DNA of 64,000 nucleotides, taken from assembly GCF_006345805.1 (NCBI RefSeq), contig NW_021835470.1, positions 1-64,000 on the forward strand, given 5' to 3'. The notes below the pieces were generated by a model, which worked only from the letters and a program-made list of their open reading frames with translations, did not search any database and had not been told where the DNA came from. Positions 10,524 through 11,684 of the stretch are shown here, piece after piece. Both the position numbers and the translations under genes were made by a program. The DNA is from Octopus sinensis (Eukaryota). Every line of letters starts with the position of its first letter. Position 1 is the stretch's first letter.

Positions 10524-10893
10524 TATAATCTACACATAAGTAACATGAGTACAATAAGTTTCCGGTCACGTGTGTATGTATGCATGTATGTAGTCAACAA
10601 AAGGAATGGAGAATTACACATTCTTAATCACCTTACGCTGGTTTCAGATATCTTAACGTCACTTAATACTGCGATGAAGTAATTTTACATTTTATTCGAA
10701 TAGAAAAACTTTTATAATATGTTGATTTTAAATTTCTAGATCTTAGTCGAGGAAATTTTGATCAATAATTATGTAATTATCCGAAACGTACGTAAGCGGA
10801 CTGGCAACGAATAATTTTCTCTATTTTCTTTTGTGTTTTTCTCCAATAATATGTGATCTTATACTGGATATACTTATACTCGGTATATAAACT

Positions 10894-10965
10894 TCCTCGG
10901 TAGTATAGTGGTAAGTATCCCCGCCTGTCACGCGGGAGACCGTGAGCAGATTCCCCGCCGGTGAG
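10894..10965 (+). tRNA. tRNA-Asp(GTC) pseudogene / retrocopy
   Basis: TCCTCGGTAGTATAGTGGTAAGTATCCCCGCCTGTCACGCGGGAGACC matches metazoan tRNA-Asp; T arm/B box damaged (GTGAGCAGATTCCCC instead of GGGGTTCGATTCCCC). Confidence 0.88.
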
Positions 10966-10977
10966 GCTTCCATATTT

Positions 10978-11213
10978 AGGCGGCGAGCTAGCAGAAACAT
11001 TAGCGCGCCGGGCGAAATGCTTAGCGGTATTTCGTCTGCGTTACGTTGTGAGTTCAAATTCCGCCGAGGTCGACTTTGCCTTTCATCCTTTCGGGTTCGA
11101 TAAATTAAGTACCAGTTACGCACTGGGGTCGATGTAATCGACTTAATGCCTATGCCTGTCCTTGTTTGTCCCTTCTGTGTTTAGCTCCTTGTGGGTAATA
11201 AAGAAATAGGTAT
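10978..11213 (+). mobile_element. SINE family C (Nin/Deu-domain-like), full length
   Basis: tRNA-like head, GAGTTCAAATTCC B box, central CCTTTCATCCTTTCGGG.TCGATAAA..AGTACC resembling the Nin domain, tail AATAAAGAAATAGGTAT. Confidence 0.85.
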
Positions 11214-11684
11214 ATAAACTTTGGATTTATAAACTGGACAGGTAGCGGATTGGAAATCTATGGACTGCATGGATCACAGTAGTCTCAACTGGTCAGCTTA
11301 GTTTGCCAAGTTTGATTTCTATAAAGCGTTTACAAAGTAGTTGCTCAAATTTTCAATCTCTTTCTCATGTGTGTAGCTATGAGAAAGAAGGAGAGAGAGT
11401 GAGAGAGCTAGAGACTATAATTTGCTAAGCATAGTTATTGTTGGCACTGCTGTTGTTGCCGGTCTTAAACTGTAATGTTTGCCGCTTGATGTTAGTATTG
11501 CCTAGCTCAAGTCAGTCCTGACTGTATCTATGTTCAAAAGTCTCTGAAGCCGTAACTTTCTCGTCTTTCATTTATTATGAAATGACCTGCATCAAGGATC
11601 ACATTTTCTAATTTGTCCTATTTCTGAGCCGTTTCGTGGGTGATTTCTAGCAGGCTAAATGACCACGTATAGGCTGTCGTTTTT

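Follow-up and report, generated by a model that had tools for sequence, protein, structure and literature searches.

A tRNA-Asp/SINE chimeric insertion in Octopus sinensis and a recurrent class of tRNA-retroposon fusions

Results

Structure of the insertion

The window analysed here is a stretch of 64,000 nucleotides of DNA from Octopus sinensis (contig NW_021835470.1, positions 1 to 64,000 of the forward strand). On its + strand, and inside one exact 13-nt repeat, lie in order: a copy of tRNA-Asp; a 12-nt trailer ending in T; and a near-complete SINE. The repeat, GGTATATAAACTT, is present exactly at 10882-10894 and at 11209-11221 (both +), the left and right copies of a target-site duplication, which bears out the initial annotation's account of a 13-mer bracketing all three parts. 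Shuffled sequence yields 0.31 matches even with one mismatch allowed, so the exact repeat is far above chance. The last T of the left copy doubles as nucleotide 1 of the tRNA, and the first 5 nt of the right copy, GGTAT, overlap the usual tail of the SINE and likely served as priming microhomology. In all, 6 of the 13 nt of the repeat are shared with element ends, and the duplication measures between 7 and 13 nt according to the assignment of these overlaps (5 nt of SINE tail, tRNA nt 1).

The tRNA-Asp(GTC) retrocopy occupies 10894-10965 (+). It starts at the mature 5' end, carries neither leader nor CCA, and is identical to intact genes over nt 1-49. Its differences from L002, an intact gene, are at 10943, 10945-10948 and 10962. 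The cluster at 10943-10948 (+) places five substitutions in six bases of the T-stem and T-loop and destroys the B box; it may reflect a multi-base mutation, a slip of the reverse transcriptase or an assembly error. Rfam recognizes 10894-10965 as a weak tRNA (29.4 bits), and ARAGORN calls no tRNA there because the T-loop is mutated. Loss of the B box predicts that the copy is dead as a tRNA, a pseudogene; the boxes of the SINE itself remain.

The SINE spans 10978-11213 (+) and falls 1-2 nt short of the 5' end most often seen in its family. It had been described as full; it is present, though near-complete. By eye, an A-box-like motif lies at 10989-11001 and a B-box-like motif at 11050-11062. 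Two close relatives occur within the window and many in the genome, and the four closest fetched copies are 96-97% identical to it. In read contigs, the loose ends of many SINE copies gather at 11208-11213.

The description of the SINE as Nin-type was not borne out, as no Nin (core Deu) domain was recognised in it. By eye, its body has no likeness to the Lottia Nin consensus given in the supplement of PMC4758252, and the 17-nt Nin motif has no match in the window at up to three mismatches. Nor, by eye, does the body resemble that of BivaMD-SINE1 (PMC4824008 supplement). Against the bivalve CORE, V and Meta consensus sequences of the same supplement, again by eye, no clear match was seen beyond a short purine-rich motif; a Meta domain was considered for the SINE and dropped after this comparison.

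Several side observations concern the SINE family. Many copies (L037, L038, L046, L058, L072) contain head-to-tail repeats of the 3' 185 nt, and these repeats begin where the tail matches an internal 5-mer. At six loci (L047, L049, L056, L058, L094 and L096) a fragment of the SINE head stops at an internal T-run and is fused to another SINE or tail; by eye, L047 and L058 have repeats of 15 and 19 nt around both SINE parts. These two loci suggest that prematurely ended SINE RNAs are captured in the same way as pre-tRNAs.

No cellular exon was recognised near the insertion, by eye and among open reading frames of at least 110 amino acids. Elsewhere in the window are three decayed open reading frames that, by eye, we take to encode a Penelope-like reverse transcriptase with GIY-YIG (14967-17351), a Tc1-like transposase (33345-34121) and an L1/Tx1-like C-terminus (1550-2161). 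The window also contains a 645-nt palindromic stretch (25942-26586, 94%) and a recent 807-nt tandem duplication (36834-38426, 99%).

Donor gene of the tRNA and its trailer

The trailer at 10966-10977 (+) ends in TTT, and 11 of its 12 nt match the intact genes L002 and L003, the sole difference from L002 lying at 10975. When the T-arm and trailer together were searched at up to one mismatch in the genome (G000, 2.72 Gb), they were found in only four places: two intact genes with long T-runs on contig C8910; one copy that enters a microsatellite; and the window. A donor tRNA-Asp gene with this trailer, the first thing that the initial annotation had proposed to look for, therefore exists in two intact copies, and comparison with L002 confirms its reading of the tRNA as beginning at the mature 5' end, followed by a 12-nt TTT trailer with no CCA. 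Sequence upstream of the window tRNA is unlike that of the donor genes (leader match of 0), and the left flank of the insertion is single-copy in the genome. Since the upstream part of the gene is absent and the trailer is kept, the template would have been a leaderless RNA, or the copy was cut exactly there.

The 3' end of U6 offers a second candidate source for the trailer, as 16 of 18 aligned positions in this region match it. With U6 often captured in this genome, this likeness raises the idea of a three-part chimera formed by two jumps, from SINE to the 3' tip of U6 to a mature-ended tRNA. That idea is very improbable: an ungapped alignment to the tRNA gene accounts for 27 of 29 contiguous positions, for a score of 25 as against 13 for U6, and the trailers of other chimeras are gene-specific and unlike U6. 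The likeness to U6 is real at the level of sequence, and the tRNA gene appears to explain the trailer better.

On G000:C5, at about 18.29-18.40 Mb, tRNA-Asp genes recur in tandem every 158 bp (L009, L010, L026-L030), and the trailer of this array recurs in the chimeras L008, L021 and L033.

Recurrence of tRNA-retroposon fusions

The window copy is one of at least 39 tRNA-retroposon fusion loci in the genome, which involve 11 amino-acid types and three partners; the number is a lower bound, as the search patterns were exact. Six further tRNA-Asp copies precede the SINE family of the window, which supplies the additional tRNA-Asp/SINE junctions that the initial annotation had suggested searching for. 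A general T-arm pattern placed before the SINE head gave 32 matches containing 11 tRNAs: five Glu, two Ser, and one each of Asp, Ala, Leu and a Cys fragment (ten identified by library blast or ARAGORN comparison, the Cys fragment by eye). One of these repeats an earlier locus, leaving 17 SINE-class loci including the window. Placed before a 50-nt retroposon tail instead, the T-arm pattern had 22 matches, 20 of them tRNAs (15 by ARAGORN), and L008 adds one more locus. At L014, a tRNA-Asp is joined to a CORE-like SINE (motif compared by eye).

This association has a same-strand bias. In the antisense control, all 65 matches were inspected; blast placed none in the tRNA library, and ARAGORN made one weak call. 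The blast library was built from the fusion loci found and favours types already seen. ARAGORN alone, which is free of that bias, recognizes 4 of 32 matches before the SINE and 15 of 22 before the 50-nt tail, as against 1 of 65 in antisense.

U6 is fused to retroposons in the same genome. A retroposon lies directly behind U6 in 17 of 48 matches by script and in 20 by eye, 22 of the 48 form an array of gene-like copies, and none of the 48 uses the SINE family of the window. The fusions to SINE heads or retroposon tails are L222-L225, L227, L228, L249-L255 and L260-L266, and several of their junctions carry an extra CT or CTAC. The array, on G000:C1 at about 141.83-141.95 Mb (L229-L248, L267, L268), consists of 22 variant U6 genes at intervals of 1.1-1.4 kb. 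Divergent U6 copies (L257-L259) and a dominant young LINE family (L171-L200) are confined to unplaced contigs, possibly marking a second organism in the assembly.

The 50-nt tail (L078-L099, L008) is the 3' end of a longer element seen in L213:298-357 and L010. A double hairpin is predicted for it, and its start is nearly constant in the chimeras, whether with tRNA or with U6, at the base of the first hairpin; folding support for hairpins in the two tails is weak (z about -2.5 and -2.1).

Duplications and empty sites

If the tRNA and the SINE arrived together, a single duplication should enclose both. A repeat of at least 7 nt (7-16 nt) surrounds the tRNA plus SINE at 12 of 17 loci, as compared to 3 of 272 shuffled pairs; at a threshold of 8 nt the count is 10 of 17, and no shuffled pair reaches it (maximum 7, against the 13 exact nucleotides of the window). 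A repeat around the SINE alone was found at none of the 17 tRNA plus SINE loci, and at 7 of 11 comparison loci that lack a tRNA (9-19 nt). The remaining 5 of the 17 have no repeat of 7 nt or more. In the 50-nt-tail class, duplications of at least 7 nt (4 of 21, versus 61 of 420 shuffled) do not rise above background, and the evidence for that class comes from foreign flanks and junctions.

These counts bear on the possibility of two independent events, in which a tRNA retrocopy or gene was later adjoined by a SINE and the 13-mer arose from local low-complexity sequence. The site is AT-rich, a near-copy of the repeat (10/13) lies at 11224, SINEs are abundant, and 6 of the 13 repeat nucleotides overlap element ends. 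Nevertheless, this account is highly improbable, because the SINE alone has no duplication, shuffled pairs never exceed 7 nt, and antisense counterparts are absent.

Surrogate empty sites were found at three loci, where the flanks adjoin in sister copies of the host repeat. The host of L053 is an antisense SINE, with a single 5-mer in the host; that of L065 is a SINE tail, with a single 12-mer; and that of L066 is an old CR1-like LINE, where the two flanks adjoin to within about 5 nt. An automated test of continuity picked out L038, L053 and L066 among the 17 loci, and L065 was found by eye.

For the window locus itself, a paralogous empty site was not found in G000. Contigs from runs X18 and X20 join the SINE tail to the right flank, indicating a filled site, and one read from run X21 was placed. 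In the distant run X15, the one compared among runs X13-X17 (which contain only 0.11 of the words), there is a 527-nt contig whose match to 11228-11374 is continued leftward by 347 letters that do not align to the SINE tail. The match starts at 11228 rather than 11209, 7 nt past the repeat; were the 327-nt insert absent, the contig would reach about 10554, near the next repeat boundary. This contig could represent the empty orthologous site, which the initial annotation had proposed as a check. The lack of an alignment to the SINE tail speaks for that reading, but the match stops short of the repeat.

RNA ends at the fusion points

The ends of the fused RNAs vary. Eight 5'-complete Asp chimeras have a donor-like gene among 35 gene-like contexts; of these, five retain 4-7 nt matching the gene leader and three, including the window, retain 0-2. 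The leader-like nucleotides of L011 may instead belong to the duplication. Other chimeras are 5'-truncated. The captured RNA had been described as a pre-tRNA processed at its 5' end and unprocessed at its 3' end; this holds for the window copy and is not the rule, as the five leader-bearing chimeras show. At L038, a tRNA-Asp fragment ending in CCA lies directly before the SINE, inside a 16-nt duplication in the head of another SINE; a mature tRNA was possibly captured here. Because leader-bearing, leaderless and CCA-ended copies occur, RNAs at several processing stages appear to have been used: primary transcripts, 5'-processed precursors and perhaps mature tRNA.

At their 3' ends, chimeras other than the window copy bear gene-specific trailers unlike U6. 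The junction carries four or more T at 8 of 17 loci in the SINE class and 16 of 21 in the tail class (24 of 38 in total). The remaining 9 of 17 SINE-class junctions have fewer than four, including the window with three.

Short T-runs such as these, below the usual terminator, would be expected if a SINE had inserted into the terminator of a tRNA-Asp gene and the read-through transcript of that master locus had then been retrotransposed, a route that would also yield one duplication enclosing both parts. Here, no master locus was found: both genes with the window trailer keep long T-runs and no SINE. Four or more T are kept at nearly half of the SINE-class junctions and most of those in the tail class, junctions vary among loci, and the same trailer occurs on different partners. 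An origin from a master locus is accordingly rated quite improbable.

Discussion

To account for the observed layout, donor trailer, foreign left flank, recurrence across tRNA types and partners, same-strand bias and placement of the duplications, we propose as the probable origin a one-step chimeric retrocopy, in which a LINE reverse transcriptase copied the SINE and jumped onto a pre-tRNA, leaving a single target-site duplication. The reaction would involve: priming by the LINE enzyme at a nick, through 5 nt of microhomology with the SINE tail; copying of the SINE to its 5' end by the reverse transcriptase; an end-to-end template jump from there to the U-rich 3' end of the pre-tRNA; and closure at the processed 5' end of the tRNA. 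End-to-end jumping of this kind is described for R2 in PMC2912911. The initial annotation's proposal of a single retrotransposition event with a trailer-bearing pre-tRNA, of the U6/LINE-chimera kind, agrees with the donor gene and the further junction copies. Among 50 of 150 reverse-transcriptase matches inspected, no LINE with the same tail as the chimeric SINE was seen; the sampled CR1-like and RTE-like families end in other tails.

Pol III trailers end in a 3'-OH, and full-length SINE RNAs begin with a triphosphate. These ends matter for the possibility that pre-tRNA and SINE RNAs were first ligated by an RtcB-type activity and the chimeric RNA was then retrotransposed in one insertion, a route shown for human U6/L1 in PMC6789731. 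U6 chimeras are common in this genome, the 5' end of the window SINE lies 1-2 nt within the most frequent one, and the 50-nt tail starts at nearly one point, like a cleavage product, in 20 of 20 matches to a pattern that covers only about 20 nt further upstream. However, RtcB needs a 2',3'-cyclic phosphate on one RNA and a 5'-OH on the other, and its ligation fell strongly when the 5' end bore a triphosphate (both PMC6789731); partners in this genome are often full-length SINEs. Sequence alone cannot separate the jump from prior RNA ligation. As the SINE is nearly full-length and a 5' triphosphate would hinder RtcB, the jump is favoured and ligation considered unlikely.

The window locus joins a small RNA to a retroposon on the same strand, within a single duplication, and its tRNA copy has no donor genomic flank and ends at the U-rich end of the RNA, as in chimeras of U6 and LINEs; its 5' partner is a pre-tRNA and not U6 or another snRNA. 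Chimeric retrocopies described in PMC4476161 include U6/L2, U6/Mon-1 (platypus), U6/AnolisSINE2 and U6/RTEX (Anolis). Like the window class, these place a U-ended Pol III RNA 5' of a SINE or short LINE tail on the same strand within one duplication, and their 5' partner is often truncated. Short or missing duplications are reported there for L2-type chimeras, and such duplications, seen where the partner has a simple-repeat tail, are a further trait in common (PMC4476161). Unlike the U6/L2 type, the passenger here is a pre-tRNA, which has a gene-specific trailer and brings an internal promoter, absent from U6; the passengers belong to many tRNA types, and the genome is that of an invertebrate. 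Human U6/L1 chimeras have the same layout, with RNA ligation as a possible route (PMC6789731). The window copy, in contrast, lacks poly(A) and has a near-complete SINE as its partner, and the expected RNA ends fit RtcB poorly. The window copy is well supported as a one-step chimeric retrocopy and belongs to a recurrent pre-tRNA version of U6/LINE-type chimeric retrocopies, which works like the U6/L2 and U6/SINE chimeras.

Mammalian tRNA sequences provide a further comparison. Work by Schmitz from 2004 reportedly describes duplication-flanked mammalian retropseudogenes, both tailless and derived from pre-tRNA, and LINE machinery that uses tRNA, including pre-tRNA, as a template. These retropseudogenes are 3'-truncated and joined to no retroposon, whereas the window copy has a complete 3' end with trailer, fused to a SINE.

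The window copy has the architecture, and would represent the proposed founding step, of complex SINEs that have gained heads, such as tRNA plus 7SL SINE, 5S plus tRNA SINE, SINEU and Bov-tA (PMC4494074). These are amplified families, whereas the fusions described here are one-off copies with different junctions: the junction of the window occurs once, and junctions differ among loci. A complex (dimeric) SINE family would, by the definition in PMC3531059, have at least 100 copies sharing a structure. The window copy founded no family, as its junction is unique and its B box destroyed. The initial annotation's view of a snapshot of a SINE gaining a tRNA head is therefore fair for the class and less so for the window copy. 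Literature searches, with subscription papers and Repbase lying outside their reach, turned up no account of a pre-tRNA joined to a SINE and none of such a fusion in a cephalopod.

In the standing model, as presented in PMC4476161, tRNA-derived SINEs arise when template switching links a tRNA with the tail of a LINE. The individual chimeras in the literature examined are almost all of U6 or other snRNAs; the tRNA fusions collected here, at least 39, sample the founding step directly. Their donor genes are traceable for the Asp copies, and they reveal which RNA ends were used: a retained leader or the mature end on the 5' side, and on the 3' side the trailer or, in one case, CCA. Chimeric copies also inflate tRNA gene counts, because ARAGORN calls many of them intact.

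The window copy, which looks dead and is unamplified, carries little functional weight; the class is of interest because it lets instances of the founding step proposed for SINEs be counted. The dozens of such fusions are likely examples of the raw event from which SINE families are born. The runs of four or more T found at most junctions would stop Pol III, which suggests a reason why few fusions may go on to found families. A bolder reading, doubtful at present, is that the genome is a SINE nursery, in which the joining of pre-tRNAs of most types to SINE heads and to the 50-nt tail is routine work for the retroposon enzymes; fusions whose promoter is intact and whose junction has under four T (such as L014, L021, L032 and L042) would then be transcribable newborn SINEs, at least one of them already being copied as a unit. 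If that reading is true, both the birth of SINEs and the terminator filter would be directly measurable.
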